A stretch of 32,000 nt of DNA, taken from Thermofilum adornatum. GTDB lineage: Archaea; Thermoproteota; Thermoprotei; Thermofilales; Thermofilaceae. Within the stretch, counting starts at the first letter, position 1, and the number at the start of each line of letters is the position of its first letter. Shown one piece after another: positions 10,396 to 32,000 of the stretch. The DNA lies in the NCBI RefSeq assembly GCF_000446015.1, contig NC_022093.1, forward strand, positions 1,620,001-1,652,000, in the 5' to 3' direction. The notes under the pieces were generated by a model. The model was not told the DNA's origin, made no database searches, and worked only from the letters and a program-made list of their open reading frames with translations. The position numbers and the translations under genes were made by a program.

Positions 10396-10674
10396 GTGAA
10401 GTTTCAAAGGGTCAATGACTACCTCTACGTGACGCTATGGGACAAACAGTACAAAAGACCAAGGAGATTCTACCTGGGAAAATCCACCAACAACAAGCTC
10501 GCAGAACTCCTCAATGCAGCCGAACAGCTACGTGTCGACCCAGAAGAGATAAGAGACTACCTTGAAAGACAAATGGACCCGGCTACCCGTCTCACGAGGA
10601 CAGATCTCGTCGTACTCGCACTTGTACTGGGCGCTAAGGCATGGCAACAGAGTACAGATTCTACAGCGCGCTAA
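10396..10674 (+). CDS. Hypothetical small protein, possible partner of the downstream NTase-fold protein
   Basis: 92-aa ORF with a GTG start right behind a TATA box and palindrome. It overlaps the next gene by 34 nt. No motif recognised. Confidence 0.4.
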   Translation: MKFQRVNDYLYVTLWDKQYKRPRRFYLGKSTNNKLAELLNAAEQLRVDPEEIRDYLERQMDPATRLTRTDLVVLALVLGAKAWQQSTDSTAR

Positions 10675-11192
10675 GGCTAGCGGTCAGGCTAGTCAAGAAG
10701 TGGTTTCCAGAATACGCCCTGATAGGCAGGTTCGCAAGAAACTTTTACGCCCCTCCCGAAACAACACTAGACGTAGACTTCCTGGTAAACCTAGACGACC
10801 ATGAGAGACTAGCAGAGTTCCTCGAATATGCGTCCGCCCGCTTTCAAGTATCGCCTATGGATATTGGACACTGGCAGTACAAGCTCTACATAAAGAGCTT
10901 CCGATTCGACCTCGTAAAGCCCAAGGGCTACAACTACGACCCAGAGGTAGTAGCAAGGAGAAGACACGTAAAAATCGGCCAAATTGGTGAAGTAGCCATC
11001 CTCTCCCCAGAAGACCTAGCCGTGCTTTACCTAGTCTCGTCCCTCGACAGAGGGGTCAAAGACCTTGTAAAGGCAAAAGACATAGTCGCATACTCAAAGG
11101 CGAGGGGAGACTTTAACGAGGAATACTTCCTGAGAAAAAGCGAAGAAAACAAAGTAAAACACCTAGCTTTAACACTTCTAAGCAAGATGTAG
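10641..11192 (+). CDS. Nucleotidyltransferase-fold protein (MNT/AbiEii-like superfamily)
   Basis: N-terminal LIGRFARNFYAPPETTLDVDFLVNL matches the G-x-ar ... T.DxD pattern of the pol-beta NTase fold. 183 aa. Confidence 0.45.
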   Translation: MATEYRFYSALRLAVRLVKKWFPEYALIGRFARNFYAPPETTLDVDFLVNLDDHERLAEFLEYASARFQVSPMDIGHWQYKLYIKSFRFDLVKPKGYNYDPEVVARRRHVKIGQIGEVAILSPEDLAVLYLVSSLDRGVKDLVKAKDIVAYSKARGDFNEEYFLRKSEENKVKHLALTLLSKM

Positions 11193-11272
11193 GAGCCCTA
11201 GGCAATTCTTACAGCTAGTTCCTAGAAGCAGGTTTACCTTTGAAATATATAAACCACTAAACGATTTTTGGG

Positions 11273-11422
11273 ATGATGCGGCAAAGGCTCAAGAAGAAGT
11301 TAGAATTTTCGGAGTTTGCAGGCATCTGGAAAGATACGGAAGAAGAAAAAATCAATAGGATATTTGAAACAATAAGAAAAGCTTGGCGAAAAACAAGAAT
11401 GTATAAAGCAAGCTGTCCTTAG
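11273..11422 (+). CDS. Small ORF (49 aa), possible antitoxin-like peptide
   Basis: Below the ORF-track cutoff. Hand translation: MMRQRLKKKLEFSEFAGIWKDTEEEKINRIFETIRKAWRKTRMYKASCP. The FAGIWKD...EE pattern resembles short archaeal antitoxin-like proteins. Weak evidence. Confidence 0.3.
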   Translation: MMRQRLKKKLEFSEFAGIWKDTEEEKINRIFETIRKAWRKTRMYKASCP

Positions 11423-11505
11423 AATCATATCCCTACGGATAAAGAAAGACTCATTCCCCTTTTATAAACAACAGGAATATAATTATCAAACAAACCTTTT
11501 TTCTC

Positions 11506-12411
11506 ATGGATAGATTTCGGGAAAAGACATGCATAGTTACAGGCGGAGCCCGCGGCATAGGAGCCGCCATAGCCACTAGGCTTGGCACCGAGGGGTGCAC
11601 CGTTGCAATATTCGACATAGACGAGCAAGCAGGAAAATACAGGCAACGCGAACTCGAGAAAAACGACATAAAGGCAGTCTTCTACAAGGTAGACGTAGCA
11701 AGCGAAGAAATGGTTAGACAAGCAGTTGAAGACTTCTATGCCAAGCACGGGAGAATAGATATACTCGTAAACAACGCCGGCATAGGGTTCTCCGGCAAAA
11801 GCATCGAGGAGCAGACCCTAGAAGAATGGAGAAGAATCATAGACACAAACCTGACAGGCACATGGCTCTGCACAAAACACGTCGTCACATATATGAAGAA
11901 GACCGGCGGAGTCATAATAAACATCGCGTCGACAAGGGCCTTCCAATCGGAGCCAAACACAGAGCCCTACTCAGCGTCAAAGGGAGGAATAATAGCGCTT
12001 AGCCACGCACTAGCAGTCTCCCTAGCAAAGTACCACATAAGAGTCATATCGATATCCCCCGGATGGGTAGACACGAGCCACTGGCAAGTACCACCCAGAC
12101 AGCCACAGCTAACACCCCTAGACCACGAGTGGCACCCCGCCGGACGCGTAGGAAAGCCAGAAGACATAGCCGCCCTAGTAGCATTCCTGGCATCAGACGA
12201 CGCACAGTGGATGACAGGGACAAACATCACAATAGACGGAGGAGTAACAACAAAAATGTTCTACCCAGACCTCGACCAGATCCAAAAACTCCTAGCAAAA
12301 CTCCTACAAGACGAGGAAACAGCCCAGACACTCATAAAGCTAGCAGAAAAGCTCCACACAAACAAAGATATCCTAAGAGAAATCAGAAACAAGTACCTCT
12401 CAACATCGTAA
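11506..12411 (+). CDS. Short-chain dehydrogenase/reductase (SDR) with a helical C-terminal extension of about 50 aa
   Basis: TGGARGIGAAIA (TGxxxGxG), NNAG, and the catalytic YSASKGG (YxxxK). Confidence 0.9.
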   Translation: MDRFREKTCIVTGGARGIGAAIATRLGTEGCTVAIFDIDEQAGKYRQRELEKNDIKAVFYKVDVASEEMVRQAVEDFYAKHGRIDILVNNAGIGFSGKSIEEQTLEEWRRIIDTNLTGTWLCTKHVVTYMKKTGGVIINIASTRAFQSEPNTEPYSASKGGIIALSHALAVSLAKYHIRVISISPGWVDTSHWQVPPRQPQLTPLDHEWHPAGRVGKPEDIAALVAFLASDDAQWMTGTNITIDGGVTTKMFYPDLDQIQKLLAKLLQDEETAQTLIKLAEKLHTNKDILREIRNKYLSTS

Positions 12412-12512
12412 CACGTGGCTCCACTAACCTTAATCCTGTCTGCGCCGCCTTGACACAAAAATTTAAGCATACCTGTGCCGTTTTATAAGTAGGGACATTG
12501 GGATACAGAGCA

Positions 12513-12742
12513 GTGGAGAAAACAACATTATAGAAGAGCTCAAAAAGAGGGAAGAAGCTAGACAAATCAGGAGAAAACAAGCAGACTGGAACTATATCAA
12601 CAACCAGCCAACCAAGCTAAAGCTAGCACTCGTCCACTACATCGAGACAGGCGACCTCTACGTCTCTGCAAAGATTGCCGGCATAACAGTGGAAGAATTC
12701 AACGAGCAACGCATAAAAGCGAGGATCCCACATGTCAACTAA
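12513..12742 (+). pseudogene. Frameshifted tandem paralogue of the downstream UPF0175-like gene
   Basis: The open frame 12467-12742 encodes IIEELKKREEARQIRRKQADWNYINNQPTKLKLALVHYIETGDLYVSAKIAGITVEEFNEQRIKARIPHVN, clearly homologous to ORF 12788-13012. It has no in-frame ATG, GTG or TTG before the conserved part. A GTG at 12513, about 25 nt after the TATA-like ttttataag, is in another frame and stops after 6 codons. Confidence 0.45.
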
Positions 12743-12787
12743 AGCGCGCGCTAGGTTCCCGGCAAAAGACCTCGAAAGGCTGGGCCT

Positions 12788-13012
12788 ATGAGCGACATAT
12801 TACGTGAGCTCGAAGAGCGGGAAAAAGAAGTAGTCGAAATGAGGAGACAAAACGCAGACTGGAACTACATAAACAGGCTCCCGCCCAGAGTAAAGGCGGC
12901 AGTAATCCTATTCATAGAAAAGGGCGACCTAAGACTAAGCCAAAAACTCTCAGGCCTAGACCTAGAAGACTTCATCGAAACCCTAAGAAAAGCAAGAGTC
13001 TGGATAACCTAG
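12788..13012 (+). CDS. UPF0175-like small protein (antitoxin-like, putative HTH)
   Basis: The 74-aa sequence LFIEKGDLRLSQKLSGLDLEDFIETLRKARV fits the UPF0175 pattern (LY..G.lSlg.aA.laG....eF...L...gi). Confidence 0.5.
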   Translation: MSDILRELEEREKEVVEMRRQNADWNYINRLPPRVKAAVILFIEKGDLRLSQKLSGLDLEDFIETLRKARVWIT

Positions 13013-13013
13013 C

Positions 13014-13253
13014 CTAAAAATCGCCCCCAACAAGCCTAGGCCGCGTCTCTCCCTTACCGTCGCTTTTTAATCGTGAATCCATGAAAACAGTCTCATCAGA
13101 AAAGTCCTCCAGCCTAATAGGCTCAATAATGATCCTCTCCCCCTCGATCCTCACACGGACAAGCCTGTACCTCGCATACTTCTCTCTCCACTCCTTGGGC
13201 AACAGTAGCCTACCCTTCCTATCCAAAACCCTAATATACTCCACAAAAACCAA
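13014..13253 (-). CDS. AbrB/SpoVT-domain protein (antitoxin or regulator)
   Basis: VLDRKGRLLLPKEWREKYARYRLVRVRIEGERIIIEPI is a typical swapped-hairpin motif. 79 aa. Confidence 0.6.
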   Translation of the reverse strand: MVFVEYIRVLDRKGRLLLPKEWREKYARYRLVRVRIEGERIIIEPIRLEDFSDETVFMDSRLKSDGKGETRPRLVGGDF

Positions 13254-13346
13254 AGTTGTCCCTCCTCCAGTTCTATAAAAATCTTAGCTTAACCGATTCC
13301 AGGCAAGCTATAGCTAAAAATTTATGGAAAAACTCAAAGGCTAGCC

Positions 13347-13571
13347 ATGAACATCATGGAAACAGCAAAAAAGATGCTAGCCCACGTCGTACTAAAACTC
13401 ATTAACCTAAAAATCCTGAGGCAAAGATGCCTCCGCTCAAAGACAATCCAGAGACTCGTACTAGAAGCATTGGCAACAAAAAGCAGACTAACCGAGAAAG
13501 AGGCTCTAGAACTAGGAGAAAAAATAAAGGAAGGAATGTTGCAGGAGCTAAGAGAAAAAGGGCTCATCTAA
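13347..13571 (+). CDS. Hypothetical small protein
   Basis: 74-aa ORF behind the TATA-like ctaaaaatttatgg. The C-terminal TEKEALELGEKIKEGMLQELREKG is helical and charged. No confident family. Confidence 0.35.
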   Translation: MNIMETAKKMLAHVVLKLINLKILRQRCLRSKTIQRLVLEALATKSRLTEKEALELGEKIKEGMLQELREKGLI

Positions 13572-13606
13572 CCCTCAATCCCGATGGTAGCCTCGCTAAA
13601 ACATTC

Positions 13607-13709
13607 AATAATAACATTGTTATTATTAAGCATAATATAGTTATTTTTGGATTTCTCTGTTCAAAATAACAAGAATAACAAAGTTATTACAAATAATAAC
13701 AAAGTTATG
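13607..13709. repeat. Cluster of AATAAC/GTTATT inverted repeats in an AT-rich spacer
   Basis: Perfect 10-1-10 inverted repeat AATAATAACA-t-TGTTATTATT at 13607-13627. AATAAC-aaa-GTTATT at 13674-13688. AATAAC-aaa-GTTATg at 13695-13709. Extra half-sites at 13640-13645 and 13665-13670. Confidence 0.7.
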
Positions 13710-13772
13710 CAGACTTTACCAATACAAATCTTGTCACCAAATTCCTCCTCCACACCTACGCCAGCCGGCTAA

Positions 13773-13931
13773 CTAGACCTCGGCCGCTACGCTTTGCTTA
13801 ACAACTCTGAGCGGTTTTAGACATTCTTCGGCATAGCTAAGTCCCTTGTAAAGGGAGATGAAAAAGATTTGAGAATAGCGCGTGCCGAAGGCTGGGAGGA
13901 GGAAAGACGTGTCAAGTAACACCATGAGCAT
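13773..13931 (-). pseudogene. Truncated PIN-domain (vapC) remnant, about 52 codons
   Basis: MLMVLLDTSFLLPAFG... is a canonical PIN N-terminus (first Asp), but the frame ends after about 52 aa against roughly 130 aa for a PIN domain. Its start overlaps the upstream AbrB gene end as in vapBC operons. Confidence 0.45.
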
Positions 13932-14232
13932 CGCGGACACCCAGTAACTCTTCCTGAGCCTCCACGCTAGTTTTCTCGAACTCCTCAGGCGCCAGGCGCA
14001 ACCTCTTAGGACTCCTCCTAGCCTCCTCGAAGAAATCAAGAGGCCTACGCAACACTATGCTCTCACCCTCCACTGTCAGAACCAGCTTCTCCCCTTCCTT
14101 GAGCTTCAGCTCCTCCACTACTCTTCTGGGGAGGTATACCGCGTAGTTCCTACCCACCCTCACAACAATCCGGGCCACCAGCCACAACCAGGTATAACCT
14201 GGAAAAAACTGGATAAAAGCATTCCCCTCCAA
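13912..14232 (-). CDS. AbrB/SpoVT-family antitoxin (VapB-like)
   Basis: VRVGRNYAVYLPRRVVEELKLKEGEKLVLTVEGESIVLRR motif. The track start is TTG at 14232; GTG at 14178 is an equally plausible start. Confidence 0.6.
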   Translation of the reverse strand: MEGNAFIQFFPGYTWLWLVARIVVRVGRNYAVYLPRRVVEELKLKEGEKLVLTVEGESIVLRRPLDFFEEARRSPKRLRLAPEEFEKTSVEAQEELLGVRDAHGVT

Positions 14233-14671
14233 ACCAGATACGAGCTAGCCTCTCACGCCCATGCTTTCTCAAAGACATTTGTCCATTTTTTATGTCTCAA
14301 ATATATGTGTCTTAGAGAAAACATCCCACTCCCAAAGCATCCCTGTAGCCGAACTGCTCTTTTATAACCCTCCCAAGGTACACTTTAAGGTATCGCGAAG
14401 GCTCTTTTATAGTGAAGCATTTCTTCTGGCAGGAATATTCCCATAAAGCTACTATTCCTTAAGAGAAGGGAGACCTAGCATTACAAGAGAGCTGGCCCCC
14501 CATCACGAGAAGATCCCTTGTGACTATTACATAGTTGAAAGCAACAGATTCTTTAAAAAGACCGAAGCATACAATTCAAAAAATTTATAGGCAACGAGCG
14601 CTAAAGATAAATGGTTCTAATGCTATCAACCAATATCCAAGACACAGCCCGCATCGAGGTGACTACACAGA

Positions 14672-15085
14672 ATGCTTAAGCCGGAAACCGTCGGGGCCGT
14701 AATTGCCCTGTACACAGAAGACAGGGACGACTTCGACGCCGAAACCATAAGAGGCATCATAGAGAACGCATACAAATTGATGGACGAAAAGAAACATGTA
14801 TCCGTAAAATTAGACTCAATAAAAAGGATCCTAGAGGTGTTCATCTCTCAAGGCTACATCCAGAAAAGCGGAGACAAATACCTCGTAACCACCCAAGGCA
14901 GACAAGCCTTCAAGGACATGTGGAAAAGCCTAGACCCCCTCACAGAGGCATACTTCGCCGGCGCATACGCATATTACGAGGCGAAAAAAGAAGAGGCAGA
15001 AAACCAACAGCACAACACTCGGCCCAGCCACAGAAAAAAAAGACAACACCAAAAACGTGATGATCGACCCCACGTTGAGCTATGA
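14672..15085 (+). CDS. Hypothetical protein with a basic low-complexity tail
   Basis: 137-aa ORF with coherent codon usage matching its neighbours. The middle part (LEVFISQGYIQKSGDKYLVTTQGRQAF) could be a winged helix, which is inference only. Confidence 0.4.
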   Translation: MLKPETVGAVIALYTEDRDDFDAETIRGIIENAYKLMDEKKHVSVKLDSIKRILEVFISQGYIQKSGDKYLVTTQGRQAFKDMWKSLDPLTEAYFAGAYAYYEAKKEEAENQQHNTRPSHRKKRQHQKRDDRPHVEL

Positions 15086-15296
15086 CAACGTATTGCCGGC
15101 ACTGCTTAGGGATGTTACTTCGCCAAACCAGTTTGGACGCGTGAAGATACACCCGATACTCTTGGTAAGTAAAGACATGCGGTACGCCTTAATGCTGATC
15201 GTCGCGCGCTAATCTCTGGAATAAATACCCGTATTGACGGTTGTACTGTATGAAGGGCTTCTTTTTCCAGATGAATAGGACACAAGCTGGATTTTT

Positions 15297-15947
15297 ATGC
15301 AGGCCCCGCACACCTATTGTTGCCCAGAGAGAGGGTCACAAAACATGAGAGTAGTCTTTAAATCTGGCATAAAGGACCTGTTCGACCTCATACAGGGAGA
15401 ATTCAAGCTCGCCCTCAAGGAAGACAACACCCAGAAAGCCAAGATCGAGTACGACGAAGAAAAACTCATCTTTCTCACAGGCACCGGCAACAAGTGGTTC
15501 ACCAAAACAGACGAGAAGGGCGACGTCTACCTCGGCTACGAGGGCACACGCAAAGACTTCATAGAACTACGCCCCTTCCAAAACCTATACTGGCTCTCAT
15601 CATCAGAAGACAAAGCTACACTAGGCTACGTCGACGACTGGACCTTCATCGAATATGTCGACCCAATTCTTGGAAACGTCTATCTTATCGAAAGAATCCC
15701 AAAAAGGATAAGAGACTTCACCCTCAAACTCGTAGAATACAAGACATCCCTCCCACCAGAGTGGGACGTCCAATGGTACGAACTCATCGAGATAACAAGC
15801 ACCAAGACCATCAAGGCAGTCCAACCACAAAAAATAACAGAACTACTCCAGTCCCAAGACGGCTACATCGCATTCATAAAAAGCCAAAACTCCACACCAC
15901 GAGTCATGGCCCCATGCAAAGACCAATGCGAAGACATAAAAGACTGA
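15297..15947 (+). CDS. Hypothetical protein
   Basis: 216-aa ORF. A more likely start is the ATG at 15345 (MRVVFKSG). No motif recognised. Confidence 0.4.
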   Translation: MQAPHTYCCPERGSQNMRVVFKSGIKDLFDLIQGEFKLALKEDNTQKAKIEYDEEKLIFLTGTGNKWFTKTDEKGDVYLGYEGTRKDFIELRPFQNLYWLSSSEDKATLGYVDDWTFIEYVDPILGNVYLIERIPKRIRDFTLKLVEYKTSLPPEWDVQWYELIEITSTKTIKAVQPQKITELLQSQDGYIAFIKSQNSTPRVMAPCKDQCEDIKD

Positions 15948-16009
15948 TAAGCGCTGTGCAAAAGTTTTATACAGAAAAATTTTAGTAACTTTTAAGTTAA
16001 TTTAAAAAC

Positions 16010-22124: not shown

Positions 22125-22607
22125 TTAGGCTATCGTTGCGCCTTTCTCTAGTCTGTTAATCAAATCATAGATTCTCCAATAGGAGTTCCTCACCTGTTCA
22201 ACAATAGTAGCTGCTAGCTTCTCAGCGAATGTGAATTCGAATACTTCCTTAGAACCCGCTAACCCATTCACGCCATACTCCAGATACTCTCTGATCGAAG
22301 TTAAGAGCCGCAAGAGCACAGCGGATCTAGCTAACTCCACTCTTATCGACTTAACTTCGTATTCCTTCAAGTCCTGCGGGCATTGCTTCAGCTTCTCATA
22401 AGCTTCGGGGATTTTATCACTGACATCGTGTGGTATCCTCCCCTCCCTAGTCTTATAGCTTATGCCCAGCTTGTCGAGAAGAGCCTTAATCGAGAGCTCC
22501 ATGCACATTTGGGCTTCGAGCATTGCACCGGAGTAATCATGCTCTTTGAGATGGTTCTCTGCTGCGTAAAGCCTCGCTCGGGCATCCTCTATTCTGCCAA
22601 CAGCCAT
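22125..22607 (-). CDS. HEPN-domain protein, orphan (no MNT partner)
   Basis: The N-terminal helix pair ARARLYAAENHLKEHDYSGAMLEAQMCMELSIKALLDKLGISY...GRIPHDVSD matches the HEPN layout seen in the 7918 gene (LALKAYLL...THSIKDL). 160 aa. Confidence 0.65.
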   Translation of the reverse strand: MAVGRIEDARARLYAAENHLKEHDYSGAMLEAQMCMELSIKALLDKLGISYKTREGRIPHDVSDKIPEAYEKLKQCPQDLKEYEVKSIRVELARSAVLLRLLTSIREYLEYGVNGLAGSKEVFEFTFAEKLAATIVEQVRNSYWRIYDLINRLEKGATIA

Positions 22608-22647
22608 AAGCGGTCATCCTAGAGTTTGCAAATTTGCTCCAATAAAC

Positions 22648-23007
22648 CTAGCGCGCTATCTCTCTAAATGTTTCTGGGTCCAGCTTGTTTATTGCGAAGC
22701 CTACCAGCATCTTGGCTGGCTTCTTTTTTGGCTCCCCAAAGACCTTTTCGACCCTTATTTTGAGCCTTAGGGGCCAGATGGGCTCGCCTCTCTCCTTTTC
22801 CTTGGGCCAGAGAGGCTCCCTGCTCTCGAACTTGCCCTCCACGGTCCCATAGCCAAGGACGCCTGTCTTGACGGCGTAGAAGACGACCTTGTCGCCCGGC
22901 TGTACCTTGCCCCAGAGCGGCCTAGCCCTCTCCCTGACGCCCCAGACGCCCCTCTCGATTCCAATCATCCAGTTGTCAAGCGTACCGACAAGAGTCCAGT
23001 AATTCAT
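22648..23007 (-). CDS. EVE / PUA-like domain protein (UPF0310-type)
   Basis: MNYWTLVGTLDNWMIGIERGVWGVRERARPLWGKVQPGDKVVFYAV...GYGTVEG...PIWPLRLKI follows the YW...NW...VWGV...V.PGDK.V.Y pattern of small archaeal EVE/UPF0310 proteins. It lies 40 nt upstream of the HEPN gene on the same strand. Confidence 0.7.
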   Translation of the reverse strand: MNYWTLVGTLDNWMIGIERGVWGVRERARPLWGKVQPGDKVVFYAVKTGVLGYGTVEGKFESREPLWPKEKERGEPIWPLRLKIRVEKVFGEPKKKPAKMLVGFAINKLDPETFREIAR

Positions 23008-23444: not shown

Positions 23445-26400
23445 GTGATGTCTTCATTCCTCGAATCCCCCAAATTCCCCGTAGACATTGTAAACCAGGC
23501 CGCAGAAAAAGAGAAAAAGGGCGGAGGACGCCCAGAACACTGGGAAATGGTCTTCTGGTGGACGAGAAAACCCCTAGCAAGCGCCCGCGCAGTGCTCGCG
23601 GCGGCCGCACTCCCCCCAGACATAGATGTACACACTTTTGTCACGCAGGTCCTCAAGGCAAAAGTAAACCTTAAGGGGCAAGTCGAAAACGTCCCGCACA
23701 GGGAGAACCCGTCGCCGCCACCCGAGTGGAGGGAGCGCTTCGCCAAGATGAAAGTGCTAGACCCCTTCGCGGGCTTCGGCTCTATACCACTAGAGGCGAT
23801 GAGGCTCGGCTTCGGCGAAGTAGTTGCGGTAGAACTGCTCCCGACAACTTATGTTTTCCTTAAGGCTGTACTCGAGTATCCAAAGTGGGCCGCAGAGAGA
23901 GGCCTAGGAGAACAGCTAGTCAGAGACGTTGAGAAGTGGGGAAAATGGATAACAGAACAGCTCGCCGGCGACCCAGACATCAAGGAGCTATACGACCCCG
24001 ACGTTGCTGTCTACATAGGCACATGGGAAGTAAAGTGCCCCCACTGCGGCAAATACACGCCCCTCATAGGCAACTGGTGGCTAGCAAGAGTATCCAAGGG
24101 CTCATCAGAGGAGACAGAGGAGGGAGAAGAGGAGGGAGCCAAAAAGAAGATCTTTAGCAGGCTTGCATGGATGGACTGGGAAAACGGGGCAATAAAGATA
24201 GTAGACCTCAACAAGGAGCTAAAAACAAGCGAGATCGAGGCCAAGGTCAACAGCAAGCAGGGCTACGTCGAGGTCAACGGCACCAAGAGGACGGTCAGGA
24301 AGCCAAATATATACGCGAGACGCGAAACAGGTACATGCCTCCACTGCGGAAACCAGATTAGATACATCTCACTGAAAACCGGGAAACACAGCATCGAGAA
24401 GCCAAAAGGCGAAGAAACAGAGTGGTACGTCAAGCACGCGATCAGAGAGTGGAACCGGCTGCTCGAGGAGTACCTAAGCGGGAGAATCGAGCTCGAGAAG
24501 CTCATCGAAAGCCCCGCCAGGCCAACCCTCCTCGTAAAAGTGAAGGTGAGAGAGGGAGACCTCGAGTTCGAGCCTGCGACCAAGCAGGACACGGAGAAGC
24601 TGTGGAAAGCCCTAGAGAAACTAAGGAGGATGTGGGGTGACCCAGATATACCGATAGAATTATTCGCGCCTTACCAAATGGGAACTGCCGGGGCTTTCCG
24701 AATAACACTTTGGGGTTTCGATAAATGGTTCAAACTTTTCAACCCGCGCCAGCTCTTGACCCTCGTCAAGCTGGTTAAGCTGATCAGGGAGGCTGGCAAA
24801 AAGATTGAAGAGGAGAAGCTGAGAGAGGGGTGGAGTGAGGAGGACGCGTTCAAGTACGCGGAAGTGGTAACGGTATATCTATCGATAGCTCTAGCAAGGT
24901 GTGCTAGCTATAACAGCGCTGTGACAGTTGTTGACTCGGCAAACCCCTGGGGGGTGAAAATAGCACATAGCTTGGCAATGCGTGGGATAGCTATGCAATG
25001 GAATTTTGGTGAAACGAATTTATTCGCTAAAAGTTTACCATTTTTCCAGGTACAAGGCTCATGGATAAAAAACATAGATAAGATAACCAATGGTTTAACC
25101 TATATTATTTCATCAATTTCGATCAAACTTAATAAGGTATTTGTTTCCATAGATGATTCTGCAATACTAAGCAGTCTCGGGAATGAAAAATTTGATGCTA
25201 TAGTTACTGACCCACCTTACAGGGACGATGTGCCTTACGTAGAGCTTAGTGACTTCTATTATGTATGGCTTAAGCGGGCTCTCAGCGACATTAGCGAGGG
25301 AAGACTTGTGCCACGATTCATGGGCGAAGCTTTTTTCAAGCGTGTTGGCGTTGCCTACAGGGAGATCAGGACTCAGTGGGAGGAATTTGCGACTAGGGAG
25401 GTTGGGCTTAACGTCGGAAGACTGAAATATTTTAAGGACAGTGAAGCTTCCGAGGATGAGGCACGTAGTTATTTTATTGATCTTTTGAGTAAGTCCTTTT
25501 TGTCGATCAGGCGTGTCCTAAAGGATGATGGCATATTGGTTACCTATTATGCTCATACGGATCCTGAGGCTTGGGAGGAGCTGATATCTGCTGGGTGGAG
25601 GGCTGGCTTCCGTGTAACTACAGCTTTTCCTGTATCAACGGAGTCTGCTCAGCGTGTGACTGCGAGGGGGAAGGCGGCTCTTGACACGTCGATTGTGGTT
25701 GTTTGGAGGCCTGGCGTTAAGGGTGAGGCTTTGTGGGACGAGGTTTATAGGGATGCTTTGGTGGCCGCTGAGGAGAGAGCTCTCGAGTTGCTTAGGGCTG
25801 GTCGTTCGGGAGTGGACTTGTTTGTTGGTACGCTGGCTGCCACGCTTTCTGCTGTGACTTCTCGTGAGAGGATTGTTGGCGTCAATGATGTTGGTGGGTT
25901 TGTTAGGGAGCGGGCTTACCCTGCGGCTGCTAGGGGGCTGGCTAGGGCTGTTTCGAGGTTTGTTGGCAGCGGGGAGGCTGGAGAGGAGGTTAGGGATGCT
26001 GGGGCGCTTTTCTATATGCTTGCCAAGGTGTTGGTGCCTTGGAGTGGTAGGGCTAGGGGGAGGGTGATGGATAGGAGCACAGTTCACATTATTGGCTTTG
26101 GGACGGGACTCGACGACAAGAAGCTGACAAGTATGAGGATTGTGGAGAAGGTTGACAGCGAGTTTCGACTTTTGGAACCTCGTGGCGAAGAGAGAGATGA
26201 TCTTGTAGAGCTTCTCCGTGCTAGGGGCCTTGACCCGTCAAGGCCGGTGTTGAGGAGTGCTGTTGATGCCTTGCATTTGTTGGAGTATTATGCCGCTACT
26301 CTTGACGTCAAAAGCTTTAGGGAGCAGTACGAGAAGCTCCGCTCTGTTAATGCTGTGCTCGTAGATGAGGCTTTGAGGCTTGCGAGGGTATTTTCTGGCC

Positions 26401-26501
26401 GTCTTGTACCGAGCGTTGATCCGGAGAGGAGACTCTGCGAGAGGGTCTTGTCGTATGTGAGTGGTGCTGGAACGCTTGAGGGGTGGTTGGGTGGGGCTTA
26501 A
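23445..26501 (+). CDS. Zn-ribbon-containing DNA methyltransferase, DUF1156/COG1743 type (N6-adenine/N4-cytosine class)
   Basis: N-terminal FPVDIVNQAAEKEK...WWTRKPLASARAVL (DUF1156 signature). SAM motif I VLDPFAGFGSIPLEA (from 23760). Two CxxC pairs (CPHCG near 24036, CLHCG near 24335). Catalytic motif IV DPPY (25209-25220). 1018 aa. Confidence 0.9.
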   Translation: MMSSFLESPKFPVDIVNQAAEKEKKGGGRPEHWEMVFWWTRKPLASARAVLAAAALPPDIDVHTFVTQVLKAKVNLKGQVENVPHRENPSPPPEWRERFAKMKVLDPFAGFGSIPLEAMRLGFGEVVAVELLPTTYVFLKAVLEYPKWAAERGLGEQLVRDVEKWGKWITEQLAGDPDIKELYDPDVAVYIGTWEVKCPHCGKYTPLIGNWWLARVSKGSSEETEEGEEEGAKKKIFSRLAWMDWENGAIKIVDLNKELKTSEIEAKVNSKQGYVEVNGTKRTVRKPNIYARRETGTCLHCGNQIRYISLKTGKHSIEKPKGEETEWYVKHAIREWNRLLEEYLSGRIELEKLIESPARPTLLVKVKVREGDLEFEPATKQDTEKLWKALEKLRRMWGDPDIPIELFAPYQMGTAGAFRITLWGFDKWFKLFNPRQLLTLVKLVKLIREAGKKIEEEKLREGWSEEDAFKYAEVVTVYLSIALARCASYNSAVTVVDSANPWGVKIAHSLAMRGIAMQWNFGETNLFAKSLPFFQVQGSWIKNIDKITNGLTYIISSISIKLNKVFVSIDDSAILSSLGNEKFDAIVTDPPYRDDVPYVELSDFYYVWLKRALSDISEGRLVPRFMGEAFFKRVGVAYREIRTQWEEFATREVGLNVGRLKYFKDSEASEDEARSYFIDLLSKSFLSIRRVLKDDGILVTYYAHTDPEAWEELISAGWRAGFRVTTAFPVSTESAQRVTARGKAALDTSIVVVWRPGVKGEALWDEVYRDALVAAEERALELLRAGRSGVDLFVGTLAATLSAVTSRERIVGVNDVGGFVRERAYPAAARGLARAVSRFVGSGEAGEEVRDAGALFYMLAKVLVPWSGRARGRVMDRSTVHIIGFGTGLDDKKLTSMRIVEKVDSEFRLLEPRGEERDDLVELLRARGLDPSRPVLRSAVDALHLLEYYAATLDVKSFREQYEKLRSVNAVLVDEALRLARVFSGRLVPSVDPERRLCERVLSYVSGAGTLEGWLGGA

Positions 26502-29500
26502 GGGGTACTGTGAGGTTAGGGGAGAGCTGTTCGACGAGAGGCTTGACGAGCAGCTTGCTCCATCGCTTTCAGAGGTTTACATGGGTAGGGGCCACGAGGT
26601 TTACTCTAACCCTGTGCTGTTCTTCGAGTCTACGTATTTCTCGGACTCTATGAGGAGGGTTCTCAGAGGCATTGTGGAGGCTGTGGAGGGCAAGGGGACT
26701 AGGAGGGTTTTCCCGCTTTTCTCGCTTTATGGCGGCGGAAAGACGCACTTGTTGCTCGCGGTACTCCACGCTGTGAGGAAGCCAGAGTCGCTTTCAAGGG
26801 TTGACAGTGAGCTGGCTGTTCGCTTTGTTGAGGCTGGGGCGAAGCTTGTGGTGCTGGATGGGGATTCTGACGAGCTTTGTCCGAGCCCTGCCAGGCCGCT
26901 GGATGTGAAGCATTACGTGGTTAGGAGTGTTTGGGGCTCTATGGCTCACCAGCTTGGGAAGTATAGGTTTTTCGAGGAGGAGGATAGGGGTGGCTTTGCG
27001 CCATCTGTGGAGGCTATCAGGAAGCTCCTTGGGGACGAGCCTGTAATCATCCTTATTGACGAGATTGCGAAGTATGTTGCGAGGTTTAGGGGGAGCCAGG
27101 ACGAAAAGCTTCGGGACTATGGGAAGAACGTTGTGGCTTTTGTTGAGAGCCTTGTGAAGGCTGTCGAGGGGACGAGGTCTGTCGTAGTTATTACTCTTCC
27201 GGTGGAGGTTAGGGGTGAAGAGGAGCGCTACATGGAGGCCTACGAGGAGGAGACTAAGATGCTTAGGGACGCTATTGGGAGGGTTGCATCGGCATACGAT
27301 GTTCCTCTTGATGCGGGGGACGTTGTCCGTGTACTGCAGAGGAGGATCTTTAAGAAGATTGATCGTGACGCTGTCGTGGCGCTTAGAAGTAGATACCTGG
27401 AGCTTTACAGCTCTGAGGAGCAAGTTTTCGGAAAATCTGCGGTCGAGAAGGCTTCTAGGATAGATGAGCTTGCGCCTTTCCATCCAAGCTACATTGATGT
27501 TCTATACGACATTGTTACAAGGCACCCCGGGCTCCAGAGGACGAGGGACGCACTTAGGATTACTCGTGTAGTGGTAAGGGAGATCTGGAATAGTGCCGAG
27601 GATCCTGACTTTGTTATGCCTTGGCATATAAATGTTGGGCGTCTTGATGCGCTTTTGCTTGGACAGAGTTTCTCGAAGTTTAAGCCGATTGTCGACAGGG
27701 ACATATATGACAACGCCCTGAAGAGGGGCCCGCTTGTTCACGCGGTTGCGCTCGCCATCTTTGTTAGGACGTATGTTTATGGCCTCGCAACGAGGCCGGA
27801 GCGGGTGTTCCCTACTAGGGAAGACGTGGCTTTCATGGTTTATGAGGAGTCTCTTGCTAAAAAGACCAACTCGAAGCCAGCCGACGTGTTGAATGCCTTG
27901 GATGTTGCTTCACGTGAATTGCTGTTTATACAGGAGAAGGACGGAAGGTACTGGTTTACCCCTATTTCTCCAATAATAGCGATTGTCCAGGACGAGGCTA
28001 GGCGTGTGAGCGAGGTTGAGGCTAGAAACCGTTTGCTCGATGCAATTAGAAGCCTGTCACAGAAGCCCCCACCGACTACTGGGAAAAAGAAGCAGGAACA
28101 GCAGAAGCTCTTTTCTCTCGTCGATGTAAGGGACAAGCCACTACCCACAGATGAGCCAAAATATTCGTTGATAATTGCCCCCCGGGTACTCTCACAGGAA
28201 GACTTGAGGAGGCTGATTTTTGAGGACGAAGGTGGCCGCTCCAGGGTCTATAGGAATACTGTGGCGGTGCTTTATCCGAGCGATGGGAGGAGGTTTAATA
28301 GGCTATTGGAGCTTGCTAGGGAGCTTATTGCCTGTGAGAATGTTGCTGAGATGCTTAATGAGATTTATCAGGATGAGGATATACGGGAGCTTCAGACTAG
28401 AAAGCTTAGACAGTACATGAGGGACAGGGAGACACAGCTCTACCAGGAAATAATTAACGCGTTTGACACTATAGGTTATCCTAGCGTGAGCGAGCGCGGC
28501 GACAATTATGCAAAGACTTCACCTGTGAGGCCAGAGGCGACTTCTCTGGCGAGGATCGCGGAGGAGGCTCTAGAGAGTCCTGATGTTGGAAAGGCATATC
28601 TGACCTCCTTAGGGTATGATGTTTTCGAGCACTTGTTGAAGGGGATTAGTGTTGATATTAGTGAAGGTAGTAGGGAGCTTACAGTGAAAGAAATTTTGGG
28701 CTACTTCTATACTCACCCCGGGTTGCCTTTTGTTCCCAGGAACCTGGTGATTCAGGCCCTAGTTGAGGGCGTGAGAAATCTCAAGATTGGTATCCAGAGG
28801 GGTGGCCAGATTTACTGGGTTCGCATTTATAGCCCTGAAAATGTACCGACGATTATTGAGGGGGCTCCGCCCAGCATGCTGGAGGACAATGATATTGTGC
28901 TTCCTTGGAGGATTGCGGCTGAGCGCTTGTTGGAACAGTTGAAGCCTGTAAGTGAGAAGAGGGATGGCAAGGTCATCAGGATTCGGTACGTGTTATTGGA
29001 AGGGGGTAGGGAGCATGACTTGAGTAGTCTTAGCACGGAGGATGCTGCGAAGCTTCTGAAGACTTATCCTCTGGTTAGGAAAGAGGAGGAGATCACTGAG
29101 GGGATCGAGGTTACGCTTCGTCCCAGCTTTGTTGAGGATAAGCCTGGCTCCATGGTTCAAGTGTTTGTGGACATAACTCCGGTGGGCAAGGTCGACGACG
29201 TAGTGAAGATTAAGGTAAGTCAAGGAGAAATCGAGCCCGGCCAGGGCAGGCCGCCGTTTACTGCTGTTTGGAGGCTTCAGCTACCGAATAAGCCGGGAAC
29301 CTACGAGTTTGAGGTGTCCGTAGAGTATAGGAGACCTGTTTCTGGGAGGCTACAGGTAAAAGTGTTGGGAGAAGAGAAGGTAAAAGTTGTCGGCCTAGTT
29401 GTGATGGATTTGTTGGAAAGTGAGGATATAGTCAAGACTTTCCCAGATTTGGTTTTTGAAGATGGCTTTGCGGCTTTGAGGTCTGGCGAGCAAGAGATCA

Positions 29501-29691
29501 CTTTGAAGACTAGGAATACTGATCCAGTCGTGTTTATAGAAATGGTCAAGGAGGCTATGAGTCTCACCGGTATTAGGAGACTTGAAGGCTTCTCTGCTAG
29601 GTTCAAGTTTAAGCAACCAAAAGAGCTTTCCGAAGTTGAAGATATTCTTTCAAGGTTTAGGAGTGTAGAGAAGATTGTGACGAGCATATGA
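26461..29691 (+). CDS. Large P-loop ATPase, DUF499/COG1483 type
   Basis: Walker A-like LYGGGKTH (26731-26748) and Walker B VIILIDEIAKY. 1076 aa. It overlaps the methyltransferase gene (up to 41 nt; alternative GTG/TTG starts run to 26491). N-terminal YSNPVLFFESTYFSDSM matches the family's FF..TY.T region. Confidence 0.8.
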   Translation: MVLERLRGGWVGLKGYCEVRGELFDERLDEQLAPSLSEVYMGRGHEVYSNPVLFFESTYFSDSMRRVLRGIVEAVEGKGTRRVFPLFSLYGGGKTHLLLAVLHAVRKPESLSRVDSELAVRFVEAGAKLVVLDGDSDELCPSPARPLDVKHYVVRSVWGSMAHQLGKYRFFEEEDRGGFAPSVEAIRKLLGDEPVIILIDEIAKYVARFRGSQDEKLRDYGKNVVAFVESLVKAVEGTRSVVVITLPVEVRGEEERYMEAYEEETKMLRDAIGRVASAYDVPLDAGDVVRVLQRRIFKKIDRDAVVALRSRYLELYSSEEQVFGKSAVEKASRIDELAPFHPSYIDVLYDIVTRHPGLQRTRDALRITRVVVREIWNSAEDPDFVMPWHINVGRLDALLLGQSFSKFKPIVDRDIYDNALKRGPLVHAVALAIFVRTYVYGLATRPERVFPTREDVAFMVYEESLAKKTNSKPADVLNALDVASRELLFIQEKDGRYWFTPISPIIAIVQDEARRVSEVEARNRLLDAIRSLSQKPPPTTGKKKQEQQKLFSLVDVRDKPLPTDEPKYSLIIAPRVLSQEDLRRLIFEDEGGRSRVYRNTVAVLYPSDGRRFNRLLELARELIACENVAEMLNEIYQDEDIRELQTRKLRQYMRDRETQLYQEIINAFDTIGYPSVSERGDNYAKTSPVRPEATSLARIAEEALESPDVGKAYLTSLGYDVFEHLLKGISVDISEGSRELTVKEILGYFYTHPGLPFVPRNLVIQALVEGVRNLKIGIQRGGQIYWVRIYSPENVPTIIEGAPPSMLEDNDIVLPWRIAAERLLEQLKPVSEKRDGKVIRIRYVLLEGGREHDLSSLSTEDAAKLLKTYPLVRKEEEITEGIEVTLRPSFVEDKPGSMVQVFVDITPVGKVDDVVKIKVSQGEIEPGQGRPPFTAVWRLQLPNKPGTYEFEVSVEYRRPVSGRLQVKVLGEEKVKVVGLVVMDLLESEDIVKTFPDLVFEDGFAALRSGEQEITLKTRNTDPVVFIEMVKEAMSLTGIRRLEGFSARFKFKQPKELSEVEDILSRFRSVEKIVTSI

Positions 29692-30110
29692 GTAGGGAGC
29701 CTCTTAGACGTGTCTCTTACACTGAAAGGAAGTCGAAGAAGGCTGAACATGGTGGAGTAGTTCAGGTCTGTCATTTTTATCCCTATACTTATTCCAAGAA
29801 GCCAGAGGTTTCCGCGGTGTGTCCGTGGAGCGAGCTAGTCCTCTTCGCGGAGTCTCTTGGTGCGCGTTTGTCTGGCAAGAGGTCGCTGCGCGTGGGCGAC
29901 GGTGTTTACAAGAGGCTTCTTGTGTATGGTGTCGTGAGGGAGAGGATTAGGGATCCTTCGAAGGCTGGAGAGCTCCGCGAGATAGTTGCTGGGCTGGACG
30001 AATACGAGCTGCATTTTTGGTTCGCGAAGTTTATTGCTGCAACTGAGAGGGGCAGGCAGGCTCTCAATAGGCCTGCTAGGGCGTTTAGGGTTTTGTACGG
30101 GCTTGATTAG
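29688..30110 (+). CDS. Small conserved-position protein (140 aa), possibly the DUF3780-type component of such operons
   Basis: ATGA start/stop overlap with the ATPase gene and a 1-nt gap to the helicase gene. Family membership cannot be verified by eye. Confidence 0.45.
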   Translation: MSREPLRRVSYTERKSKKAEHGGVVQVCHFYPYTYSKKPEVSAVCPWSELVLFAESLGARLSGKRSLRVGDGVYKRLLVYGVVRERIRDPSKAGELREIVAGLDEYELHFWFAKFIAATERGRQALNRPARAFRVLYGLD

Positions 30111-30111
30111 T

Positions 30112-32000
30112 ATGGCTCTAAGCCTTGTCCACGACGTTTTGGATCTTTATTCCCGGTATAACCCGATTCTGTATCTTGGCCTTCAGAGGGCTAGGCCTCC
30201 CGTTTATCCTTATCTGCATCAAGCCGAGTTCCTTGCACGTACAATGGTTAGGGTGCCGGTCCGCGTGTTTGTTGCGGACGAGATAGGTCTCGGCAAGACT
30301 GTTACAGCTATTTCGACTGCTAAGAGGCTTTCCGATCTGGGCCTTGCCAAGAGGGTTCTCATATTGGTTCCCCGGATACTTGTGAGGCAGTGGCTCCTAG
30401 AGCTTGAACGCTTCGGTATAAGGGCCACAAGGATCGAGAGAGCGAACTTCCAGAGTCTTTCTTCGAGCGGTTTTCCAGAGGGTTTCTATGTCGCGTCGAT
30501 GGATCTAGTTAAAAGGGAGAGGTACATGGATAAGATTCTAGGTGTTTCCTGGGACTTGCTTATTGTGGATGAGGCTCACAGGGTAGGCAAGTCATCTGCC
30601 AAAAAAGAGACCCAGAGGTACAGGTTTGTCTCTAGGATTGCGGTCGACAAGTCCAAGCATATCCTTTTGCTTTCTGCTACGCCCCACCGTGGAGACCCTA
30701 AGGACTATCTTTCCAGGCTTATGCTTTTGGACCCCTCCTTAACGACAGATTTTCAGAGGCTTGACAATGTGTTATTTTATAGTGCTACACAGAATGTGCT
30801 GGTCTTTAGAAGAACAAAGCTCGACGTGAACAATGTCTATGAAGGTGAGAAGGTCTTTCCAGGGTGTAGTGTTTCAGCGGTGATTGTCCCTGCTACCCGT
30901 GACGAGAGCGAGTTCCATAGGAGGCTTATAAGCTTCCTCAGGACGAAGATCCTCGACTACCATAATGTGAGTGGAACAGAGCCTAGGGCTCTTGGTCTTC
31001 TCAATGCTTTGATCTTTAAGAGGGCTTCATCGAGCCCGGCCGCTGCTATTAACACTATGCAGGTTATCCTCGAGAAGCGAGCATACTGGCTCCAAAATAG
31101 GGTTATTGCCGAGAAAGATTTAAGGAAAAGGATTAATCTTGCCAAGGCTCTACTCGGCACTGGTTTTGAGGAATATGAGGAAGATGTGGATCCAGACAAG
31201 GTTGTTGAAGAGTTTGCAGAAAGGTGCTCTATCCTGTTTTCTGAAAATGATGTAAGAGAGCTTCAGCATCTTGTCCAGCTCGCCAAGGCTTCGATGACTA
31301 ATGATAGCAGGCTGAAGGGCGTTGTTAGCATTGTTGAGCAACATGTAAGCATGGGCGACAAGGTAATCTTGTTTACAGAGTTTAAGGATACAGCTCACTA
31401 CGTGTTCGATGCTCTGGTGAAGGTTCTCGGCAGAGAAAACGTGAGGTTGCTCACTAGTGACGAGGCGGCCAGGGAAGAAGAGCTGATGTCGATACGTTCG
31501 TGGCTCGAGGAAAACGGGAAGAGAGTTCTAGTTGCAACTGACGTGGCATCTGAGGGCCTTAACCTCCAGGTTGCCAATGTCCTGATAAATTATGAGCCTC
31601 CCTGGTCCCCCATAAAACTGGAGCAGAGGATTGGGAGGGTTTGGAGGCTGGGTCAAAAGAAGGATGTAAATGTTTATACTGTTTTCCTTGCTGTCGACAG
31701 CGACAAGGATGTTCTAGACGTGTTGTACAAGAAGCTCGTTGCTATGGGGAGGGCTCTCGGGAAGCTCGAGAAGCCTCCAGTCGGAGAAGAGGCATACGTT
31801 ATCGACTTCGAGGAAAGGAGAGAGCCGCAACCTGTTACACTGTCTATTAAGAGTGGATCAAGGCTCAAAAAGGTAAGCGAGTACACACTTAGAAGGCAGT
31901 ACATCGAAAAGGGCAGAGAGGGCTTCGAGAGGCTCGTAGACTCTATTGCAAGAACTATACAGCAGCTCCAGAAGGATCTTGAAAAGGTTAGCGGTAGTAA
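30112..32000 (+). CDS. SNF2/RapA-family superfamily-2 helicase, 5' 629 codons; continues beyond the window end
   Basis: Absent from the ORF track (no stop in the window). Hand translation: MALSLVHDVL... with motif I ADEIGLGKT (30286-30300), motif II DEAH (30568-30579), motif III LLLSATPHRG, motif V LVATDVASEGLNLQ, motif VI YEPPWSPIKLEQRIGRVWRLGQ. Confidence 0.9.
   Translation, partial: MALSLVHDVLDLYSRYNPILYLGLQRARPPVYPYLHQAEFLARTMVRVPVRVFVADEIGLGKTVTAISTAKRLSDLGLAKRVLILVPRILVRQWLLELERFGIRATRIERANFQSLSSSGFPEGFYVASMDLVKRERYMDKILGVSWDLLIVDEAHRVGKSSAKKETQRYRFVSRIAVDKSKHILLLSATPHRGDPKDYLSRLMLLDPSLTTDFQRLDNVLFYSATQNVLVFRRTKLDVNNVYEGEKVFPGCSVSAVIVPATRDESEFHRRLISFLRTKILDYHNVSGTEPRALGLLNALIFKRASSSPAAAINTMQVILEKRAYWLQNRVIAEKDLRKRINLAKALLGTGFEEYEEDVDPDKVVEEFAERCSILFSENDVRELQHLVQLAKASMTNDSRLKGVVSIVEQHVSMGDKVILFTEFKDTAHYVFDALVKVLGRENVRLLTSDEAAREEELMSIRSWLEENGKRVLVATDVASEGLNLQVANVLINYEPPWSPIKLEQRIGRVWRLGQKKDVNVYTVFLAVDSDKDVLDVLYKKLVAMGRALGKLEKPPVGEEAYVIDFEERREPQPVTLSIKSGSRLKKVSEYTLRRQYIEKGREGFERLVDSIARTIQQLQKDLEKVSGS

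Follow-up and report, generated by a model that had tools for sequence, protein, structure and literature searches.

The stretch analysed here (the window) comprises 32,000 nucleotides of Thermofilum adornatum (assembly GCF_000446015.1, contig NC_022093.1, positions 1,620,001 to 1,652,000), and its right part carries a DUF499-centred BREX-related (BR) defence operon, also called Hma (helicase-methylase-ATPase). The features that concern us, in coordinates of the window, are the following:

22125..23007 (-), the HEPN (22125-22607) and EVE (22648-23007) genes directly upstream, identified by Pfam, typical companions of such systems (PMC12839542) and not skewed like the N arm described below.
23445..26501 (+), the DUF1156-family N6-adenine DNA methyltransferase (MTase) gene (1018 aa; N186_09205; HmaB / BR-system MTase).
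23445..24420 (+), left (N) arm of this gene, codons 1-325, with the DUF1156 domain, motif I FAGFG (nt 23766, aa 108) and two Cys-x2-Cys elements (nt 24036 and 24336); A+C-styled and T-avoiding.
24420..25364 (+), recombinant central segment, codons ~326-640.
24885..25208 (+), hypervariable AT-rich cassette, codons ~481-588, a presumed target-recognition module ending at the DPPY motif.
25209..25220 (+), catalytic motif IV, DPPY (aa 589-592), the pivot region of the skew.
25365..26501 (+), right (C) arm, codons ~641-1018; G+T-styled and A-depleted, with Ala/Arg/Val-rich protein composition.
26461..29691 (+), DUF499 AAA+ ATPase gene (HmaC / BR ATPase), which overlaps the MTase gene by 41 nt and continues the G+T style (keto3 +0.2 to +0.7 throughout).
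29688..30110 (+), a conserved operon gene of ~140-150 aa, G+T-styled.
30107..32000 (+), the SNF2/DEAD-type helicase gene, which runs off the window and in which the G+T style weakens (keto3 +0.1 to +0.47).

The MTase has 100% identity to P0001, and the deposited protein starts one codon later, at ATG. It matched Pfam DUF1156 (E = 9.5e-10), PADLOC MTase_II PDLC03352 at full length (residues 3-982 of 1023 profile positions, E = 2e-227) and HmaB (E = 4e-54). The ATPase matched Pfam DUF499 (E = 7.2e-169 over residues 126-943) and PADLOC HmaC (E = 3.5e-51), and the ORF at 29986-31995, cut by the window end, matched SNF2-rel_dom, Helicase_C and ResIII. The small gene lies in the position of the Type-2 BR marker DUF3780, and an ORF of the same size sits at the same position in homologous operons, but it gave no Pfam hit even at E = 10. 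No Rfam or tRNA hits were found in the window.

A first-pass annotation, made from the sequence alone, had noticed an abrupt switch of synonymous codons inside the MTase gene, and this observation is confirmed. Third-position T is found 1-3 times per 60 codons across codons 201-360 and about 30 times per 60 across codons 760-820, while A does the reverse. The approximate hand counts given there were essentially exact: GCT is 2 of 28 Ala codons at 23445-24600 and 32 of 45 at 25201-26498, and the four-fold families of Leu, Val, Pro, Arg and Thr switch in the same way. A maximum-likelihood change-point test restricted to 4-fold sites, which excludes amino-acid composition as a confounder, gave 2dLL = 103, against a permutation mean of 8 and maximum of 18 over 200 shuffles. 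The AT-rich block described before DPPY is also real (GC 0.23-0.35 at 25000-25180), and the 5' style does match the plus-strand genes at 7-16 kb, as the 3' style matches the DUF499 ATPase and the helicase. However, the 5' part is not almost only C/A-ending as had been stated, since G-ending codons stay at about 22-38% and the defining feature is T-avoidance (4-fold sites: A63 C74 G35 T19, compared to A21 C32 G52 T102 in the A- and C-depleted 3' part). In addition, the transition is not one abrupt step but has three parts, with A+C style to about codon 390, a neutral AT-rich middle, and G+T style from about codon 620.

The annotation had inferred that the gene is a chimera, in which the N-terminal part has a different history from the segment before motif IV and the C-terminal domain, consistent with the swapping of a specificity-determining region. 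This interpretation was only partly supported. The gene is a recombination mosaic. By windowed amino acid and synonymous identity, codons ~326-640 are closer to a different clade (L009/L007/L010; homologous loci are designated by L numbers) than to the otherwise nearest relatives of the gene, and the window's gene matches L009 at 68% of informative sites inside this segment and at 9% outside (maximum chi2 290, permutation maximum 22). However, codons 1-300 and 661-1018 have the same nearest relatives, L001-L006 (aa identity 0.83-1.0, synonymous identity 0.8-0.95), an outcome that had been named beforehand as one that would refute the chimera. Furthermore, every orthologue, with or without the recombinant patch, has the same switch. 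The compositional change does not coincide with a junction between N and C parts of different ancestry.

The AT-rich cassette, on the other hand, does behave as a swappable specificity module. Its aa identity is only 0.35-0.57 even to relatives that are 91-95% identical in the N arm (codons 1-300) and 85-91% over codons 601-1018. Across 91 homologues the identity of the block is independent of that of the arms, with a median of 0.40 for arms from 45 to 95% identical; arms 98% identical carry blocks only 0.41-0.42 identical, whereas arms 37-69% identical carry blocks 0.80-0.90 identical. N and C modules are also discordant in some pairs (L039/L093 are 0.90 in N and 0.30 in C, L040/L046 are 1.00 and 0.68, and L040/L060 is a further case). 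The GC3 of the arms tracks that of the host flanks, while the cassette stays at a GC3 of about 0.33 in every host.

The switch is a property of this gene family rather than of this genome. The median 2dLL was 42.5 for 87 MTase genes, 65 of them with p <= 0.005, compared to 7.7 for 201 other ORFs in the same loci, and only 1 of 107 other ORFs of >=900 aa reached 40; chance or a general property of long genes was rejected by permutation and by this control. All 35 strong A+C-to-G+T change points lie at window codons 363-623. The same pivot was found in homologues at 43-53% identity and in 25%-identical genes of cyanobacterial plasmids, sometimes with inverted polarity. In three of five cyanobacterial homologues with a switch the change point lies within about 5-17 codons of xPPY (2dLL 126-209), and in Picosynechococcus (2dLL 101) about 39 codons before it. 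As these cyanobacteria are mesophilic, heat-driven deamination was rejected as the sole cause. Thermus, Meiothermus, haloarchaeal, actinobacterial and proteobacterial members, although sharing the architecture, show little or no switch.

The skews of the two arms are mirror images, with a Spearman correlation of -0.72 over 87 genes and -0.65 over 27 clusters, four strongly opposite clusters and no strong same-sign cluster. Random joining of differently styled modules predicts no correlation, and unrecombined genes a positive one. In favor of the two-parent chimera, recombination in this family is rampant, the window's own gene contains a foreign central patch, and recent substitutions erode the skew, as expected for an imported relic. 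However, the switch recurs at the same position at identities where synonymous sites are saturated, and it persists although arm GC3 has been ameliorated to the host. We consider the chimera, as an explanation of the codon switch, very unlikely and already largely refuted for N versus C.

The bias acts at the level of DNA and follows the DNA strand rather than the coding strand. Codon positions 1+2, K/(K+R) and I/(I+V) follow the 4-fold skew, i.e., amino-acid composition has been dragged along. Minus-strand neighbors follow the plus-strand sign, and neighbors of any identity take the sign of the adjacent arm and decay outward; in cyanobacteria the skew extends into unrelated toxin-antitoxin genes inserted beside the MTase. 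The behavior of the neighbors weighs against transcription-associated mutational asymmetry, in which the AT-rich cassette would act as an internal bidirectional promoter (or, in the other polarity, as a convergent terminator) and the non-template strand, different on the two sides, would accumulate C-to-T and A-to-G changes. This reading has the expected sign for sense transcription in the C arm and downstream operon, an AT-rich block in all homologues whatever the host GC, and a skew domain roughly operon-sized in archaeal loci. However, in the other polarity class a 3-4 kb expressed DUF499 gene has a coding strand at keto3 of about -0.8, which would need antisense transcription to dominate, the cassette sequence is not conserved and is constantly replaced, making a conserved promoter unlikely, and other genes in the same loci show no comparable skew. 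We regard this explanation as unlikely.

A replication-related skew, with the gene on a chromosomal origin or terminus or an origin-like element carried next to the ATPase, was also considered. The A+C-to-G+T order is that expected at a bidirectional origin, DUF499 has an ORC/Cdc6-type ATPase core (PMC12839542), and much of the 25 kb to the left of the gene is mildly A+C-rich on the plus strand irrespective of gene orientation, L087 and L084 looking similar. However, the 7 kb immediately upstream in the window is neutral, the flanks are neutral in L005, L010, L013, L086, L089 and L042, and the right-hand domain ends with the operon. The neutral flanks carry this argument and not a change of genomic context in L005, as the Thermofilum loci are largely syntenic with a ~2 kb indel. 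The opposite polarity exists, and the pivot is at the same codon region on unrelated plasmids where DUF499 lies upstream and is unskewed. A replication origin or terminus is therefore very unlikely.

In some homologues the skew is near saturation (L072 and L086), and values of 0.9 exceed normal cellular ones. This, together with the neutral host flanks, the erosion by recent mutations and an operon GC3 far above that of the flanks in L010, could suggest a decaying imprint from a virus or plasmid with a long single-stranded stage, from which the operon was recently imported. However, a single-stranded stage gives one polarity across the element rather than a mirror, no relatives were found on viral contigs, arm GC3 generally matches the host, and the skew survives synonymous saturation within clades, so that this origin seems improbable. 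Present-day point mutation opposes the skew: polarised singletons run against it by 24 vs 12 in the N arm and 36 vs 10 in the C arm. Persistence across saturated divergence while new mutations run against it is the classic signature of a fixation bias and, with the near saturation and the anticorrelation of the arms, could indicate selection on DNA or mRNA composition itself. Against it, no shared oriented k-mer (Chi-, KOPS- or recognition-site-like) appeared beyond multiple-testing expectation, arm-to-arm reverse complementarity gave only chance hits, amino-acid composition is dragged along, the bias spills into neighboring genes of any function and orientation, many family members function without it, and there is no known function that would need it. 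We also consider this unlikely.

What the analysis establishes is the anatomy, i.e., two conserved arms (codons ~1-325/390 and ~620/640-1018) flanking a central region exchanged by homologous recombination, the core of which swaps so fast that its relatedness is uncoupled from that of the arms, together with the mirrored, strand-based, family-wide bias in both polarities, generated or held in situ and opposed by mutation. In this gene the top strand is amino-rich on the left and keto-rich on the right, the latter running on through the DUF499 ATPase gene and fading in the helicase gene. The mechanism is inferred, without any recombination intermediate having been observed, as are, from gene content alone, adenine methylation of self DNA and anti-virus protection. 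Our best explanation, held tentatively, is that the bias is a by-product of the recurrent recombination that swaps the cassette. In every such event the homologous arms would pass through single-stranded or heteroduplex intermediates and, because 5'-to-3' end resection has a fixed direction, the exposed or invading strand would be the opposite DNA strand on the two sides of the heterologous cassette. Strand-specific base damage (C to U and A to hypoxanthine, which turn amino bases into keto bases), strand-biased mismatch correction, or both, would then push the two arms in opposite directions. The polarity would depend on the geometry of the intermediate and on the repair enzymes of the lineage, a resected linear donor giving A+C then G+T and a break inside the resident cassette G+T then A+C, and frequent swaps would hold the bias against ordinary mutation.

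Several facts do not fit easily. Recent private changes in the window's clade show no strand-coordinated imprint, their spectrum looking strand-symmetric and GC-to-AT biased, and the imported patch has only 9-12 private differences, too few for such a comparison. The skew is not always strongest next to the cassette, as in L072 and L086 it plateaus 0.5-2.5 kb away. In L086 the left domain begins sharply at the gene start, whereas simple outward resection from a chromosomal break should run into the flank, and L072 has a further sign change in mid-helicase that needs a second pivot. The model does not explain why Crenarchaeota show one polarity and cyanobacteria and the Nitrososphaeria/Bathyarchaeia-type clade the other, and the Thermus, Meiothermus, haloarchaeal, actinobacterial and proteobacterial members share the architecture but show little or no switch. 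Finally, the strongly A+C-styled ordinary genes at 10.6-16 kb of the window show that strong local skew can occur away from any identified cassette.

It remains possible, although less likely than not, that recurrent cassette swapping in defence-system methylase genes drives a strand-asymmetric conversion or damage bias, opposite on the two sides of the cassette and strong enough to saturate synonymous sites and shift amino-acid composition over kilobases, which would be a previously unrecognised evolutionary force in prokaryotic genes. If the mirrored skew is such a footprint, biased repair or damage in recombination intermediates would be able to dominate codon usage and protein composition, there would be a sequence-only signature to locate specificity-cassette swap hot spots in defence genes and, from its sign, to infer the recombination geometry used by a lineage, and compositional “foreignness” inside defence genes would not need to mean a chimera of foreign parents. 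Even if the mechanism proves different, a gene-family-intrinsic, near-saturated, bipolar strand skew recurring from hyperthermophilic archaea to cyanobacterial plasmids is an unexplained regularity, and one accessible in a transformable model (Picosynechococcus PCC 7002 plasmid pAQ6). We found no published description of this pattern.

The locus shares gene content and order with the DUF499-centred BR/Hma systems (PMC12839542): a DUF1156 N6-MTase with a TRD insert between the catalytic motifs, a DUF499 ATPase, a small gene (here not recognised as DUF3780) and an SNF2-type helicase, with HEPN and EVE genes alongside. Nothing in that description concerns synonymous-site strand skew or cassette-centred mirror asymmetry. 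As in the target-recognition-domain swapping of restriction-modification and BREX methyltransferases (reviewed in PMC12707154), a discrete central specificity block is exchanged among otherwise conserved genes, but the host-independent GC3 of the cassette and the opposite strand skew of the arms have not, to our knowledge, been reported for such genes. Replication-associated GC/AT skew switches at origins and termini (reviewed in PMC3269012) involve the same keto/amino axis, are DNA-strand-based and change sign at a point, while the bias described here is local to one operon, travels with the gene across hosts and plasmids, is far stronger, occurs in either polarity and pivots inside an ORF. 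Left/right strand asymmetry of mutations is found around human recombination centers (NCO/CO-proximal de novo mutations), where it is attributed to resected ssDNA (PMC11922761), strand-coordinated ssDNA damage clusters are described in yeast (PMC6786661, PMC3521656), and strand-biased mismatch resolution reverses when the break position moves (PMC9001825). Like these recombination centers, the MTase gene has documented recurrent recombination at the center and opposite skews on its two sides. However, those are small effects on mutation spectra or single reporter events in eukaryotes, whereas here the effect would have accumulated to dominate the codon usage, and even the amino-acid composition, of kilobase-scale arms in prokaryotic genes, and it occurs in both polarities.

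The locus belongs to Thermofilum adornatum and the genes relevant to the analysis are the following.
23445-26501, a DUF1156-family N6-adenine methyltransferase gene (MTase), 100% identical in protein to N186_09205.
26461-29691, a DUF499 ATPase gene.
29688-30110, an ORF of ca. 140 aa conserved in the operon.
Downstream of it, an SNF2-type helicase gene.
22125-23007, minus strand, HEPN and EVE genes that precede the MTase.
The MTase has a Pfam DUF1156 match, motif I (FAGFG) at aa 108 and motif IV (DPPY) at aa 589, and it matches one PADLOC full-length MTase profile over residues 3-982 and also HmaB. By gene content this is a DUF499-centred BREX-related (BR, or Hma) defence operon as described in PMC12839542. 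The architecture is therefore standard, so that any chimerism must be between homologues. The small ORF is located where Type-2 BR systems carry DUF3780, but a Pfam search gave no match even at E = 10, and it may be a divergent or a different small component. A nucleotidyltransferase and PIN-domain pair (8269-8589 and 8924-9421) is also present, and together with the HEPN and EVE pair gives the region between the transporter genes and the operon the appearance of a defence and toxin-antitoxin island.

The switch of synonymous codons inside the MTase gene, pointed out in the first-pass annotation, was confirmed quantitatively. T at third positions rises from 1-3 per 60 codons to about 30 per 60, and A falls correspondingly. 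GCT represents 2/28 Ala codons before 24.6 kb and 32/45 after 25.2 kb, and the other four-fold families behave alike. A change-point test on 4-fold sites gave a statistic (2dLL) of 103, against a permutation maximum of 18. The AT-rich trough (GC 0.23-0.35 at 25000-25180) ends at DPPY (nt 25209). However, the description had to be refined in two respects. The 5' style, which had been taken as almost only C/A-ending, is better defined as avoidance of T, and the profile has three parts, i.e., an A+C style to about codon 390, a neutral AT-rich middle, and a G+T style from about codon 620 that continues through the DUF499 gene and fades in the helicase.

The interpretation given to this switch, a chimera of two parts with different histories, consistent with the swapping of a specificity-determining region, was only partly supported, the idea being right but for the wrong boundary. 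We collected 111 related loci and compared the two differently styled parts separately; congruent nearest relatives had been set beforehand as the refuting outcome. Against the closest relatives (loci L001-L006), the gene was 83-100% identical in protein and 0.8-0.95 identical at synonymous sites both in codons 1-300 and in codons 661-1018, indicating that the two parts have the same nearest relatives. All these orthologues, and a second Thermofilum clade with GC3 of about 0.9, show the same switch at the same place. The style switch is not the seam of a recent fusion. Some of these relatives (L001 8141-9967, L005 7808-9866 and L004 391-1611) carry an insertion of ca. 2 kb between the EVE gene and the MTase, with a minus-strand gene of 407 aa and low GC3 (0.26-0.28), that is absent from the window, L002 and L006, and homology resumes 34 bp before the MTase start (window 23411). 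In another Thermofilum relative (L010) the whole operon is compositionally foreign to its neighborhood, with a GC3 of 0.75-0.88 (9941-14249) while the flanking genes (at 5-9958) are at 0.27-0.63.

The real mosaic was found in the middle of the gene. Codons ~326-640 have a different ancestry, matching the clade of another of the collected loci (L009) at 68% of informative sites there and at 9% elsewhere (chi2 290, permutation maximum 22). Within this segment the AT-rich block (codons ~481-588) is only 35-57% identical to every relative. Across 91 full-length homologues the identity of the block was unrelated to that of the arms, with a median of 0.40 whether the arms were 45% or 95% identical. 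Genes with arms 98% identical carry blocks only 0.41-0.42 identical, and genes with arms 37-69% identical share blocks at 0.80-0.90. The block is therefore a rapidly exchanged cassette, presumably the target-recognition module, and it is to this central part that the proposal of specificity-region swapping applies. Over 87 homologues (window-equivalent codons 480-585, positions 24882-25199) its GC3 is about 0.33 (range about 0.20-0.46) in essentially all of them, although the GC3 of the arms ranges from 0.17 to 0.91 and that of the host flanks from 0.19 to 0.88. It is lower than both arms in 80 of 87 genes, while the arms track their hosts, and in the very AT-rich hosts of loci L064 and L101 the cassette is more GC-rich than the arms. 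This may reflect a shared mobile cassette pool, a mutational equilibrium under rapid turnover or a constraint at the nucleotide level.

The skew itself is a property of the gene family. At 4-fold sites the contrast between the N and C arms is large in most homologues and occurs in both polarities. All 35 strong A+C-to-G+T change points lie at window codons 363-623 (median 510), including genes of Vulcanisaeta, Caldivirga, Pyrobaculum and Desulfurococcales at 43-53% identity, and ten strong cases have the inverse order. As a control, the median change-point statistic was 42.5 for 87 MTase genes and 7.7 for 201 other ORFs in the same loci. Only one of 107 other ORFs of >=900 aa reached 40, the helicase of locus L072 (within the region 8988-13190), with a second sign change in the middle of the gene (~10.4 kb; 2dLL 59). 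The last gene of that operon has a 4-fold keto skew of -0.74, suggesting another pivot further along. Some members are near saturation. The MTase of L072 goes from keto3 -0.93 to +0.93 and that of locus L086 is the mirror image, while their host flanks are neutral. The skews of the two arms are anticorrelated (Spearman -0.72 over genes and -0.65 over 27 clusters at 70% identity), and no cluster has strong skew of the same sign in both. The same anatomy was found in DUF1156 genes only ~25% identical, located on plasmids of mesophilic cyanobacteria: Leptolyngbya (2dLL 209), Pseudanabaena (127), Allocoleopsis (126) and Picosynechococcus (101). In the first three the change point lies within about 5-17 codons of xPPY and in Picosynechococcus about 39 codons before it, each preceded by a trough of low GC3. 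In contrast, Thermus, Meiothermus, haloarchaeal, actinobacterial and proteobacterial members show little switch.

The bias acts on DNA rather than on codon choice. Codon positions 1+2 and amino-acid ratios follow the 4-fold skew, for example K/(K+R) in the C arm is 0.22 here and 0.69 in the inverse-polarity L086. It follows the DNA strand, as minus-strand neighbors carry the plus-strand sign, and in cyanobacterial loci with a different gene order the neighbors of any function take the sign of the adjacent arm, with an effect that decays outward. It is also diffuse. No oriented oligomer stood out against a null that preserves the protein and the regional codon usage, and the arms are not complementary to each other. 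The skew survives synonymous saturation. However, polarized private substitutions in the clade of the T. adornatum gene run against it, amino-to-keto 24 vs. 12 in the A+C arm and keto-to-amino 36 vs. 10 in the G+T arm (G>A 21 and A>G 0), and the current spectrum looks strand-symmetric. Something other than present-day point mutation therefore creates or holds the skew.

A strong skew is also present elsewhere in the window, over 10641-16000 and in a minus-strand gene before it.
9492-10268, minus strand.
10641-11192, 11506-12411, 14672-15085 and 15297-15947, ordinary-looking genes.
12400-14600 (approximate limits), a stretch of ~2.2 kb without any ORF of >=100 aa.
The A+C skew of these genes is as strong as that of the MTase N arm. 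Examples are an SDR dehydrogenase with only 6% T at 4-fold sites and an unknown ORF with a 4-fold keto skew of -0.84. The minus-strand hydrolase mirrors them, so that here too the bias is DNA-strand-based. No cassette or pivot was identified for this domain. The stretch lacking ORFs has a strong C>G skew (GC skew -0.31 at 12901-13500) and gave no Rfam family or tRNA hit.

The exchanged cassette, the recombinant central segment and the mirrored, strand-based and family-wide skew are results of the analysis, while the process behind the skew is our inference, as are the target-recognition role of the cassette and the methylation and defense functions, taken from sequence alone. The process should pivot at the cassette, act on opposite strands on the two sides, be able to take either polarity, be tied to the gene rather than to the host chromosome, and work as a recurrent or fixation-type force against mutation. 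Recurrent homologous recombination replacing the cassette fits all five. In this view the arms would be the homology tracts, and end resection would leave opposite strands single-stranded on the two sides. Damage to ssDNA (deamination turns amino bases into keto bases) or strand-biased heteroduplex repair would then be mirror-symmetric. A resected linear donor predicts A+C then G+T, as in this gene, and a break within the resident cassette predicts the inverse. Swaps are frequent enough to matter, since they are seen between genes whose arms differ by 1-2%. We hold this mechanism only tentatively, as somewhat less likely than not. No strand-coordinated recent changes were detectable, the maximum of the skew is not always adjacent to the cassette, L072 needs a second pivot, the model does not account for the lineage distribution of polarities or for the absence of skew in several phyla, and the A+C-styled genes at 10.6-16 kb have no known cassette. 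As alternatives we considered transcription from the AT-rich block, selection on composition, a replication origin or terminus and an imported relic. Each of them is contradicted by specific results, transcription and selection remaining the most serious.

The finding is real and significant, and what remains is a so far unexplained but testable regularity of a defense-gene family. Neither the literature on the system nor searches on archaeal skews and recombination-associated asymmetry provided any description of a mirrored, cassette-centered strand skew in prokaryotic genes. There are eukaryotic precedents for each element of the proposed mechanism. The operon itself and the swapping of target-recognition domains are both already known, and nothing in the description of the BR system concerns a mirrored skew around the exchanged cassette.
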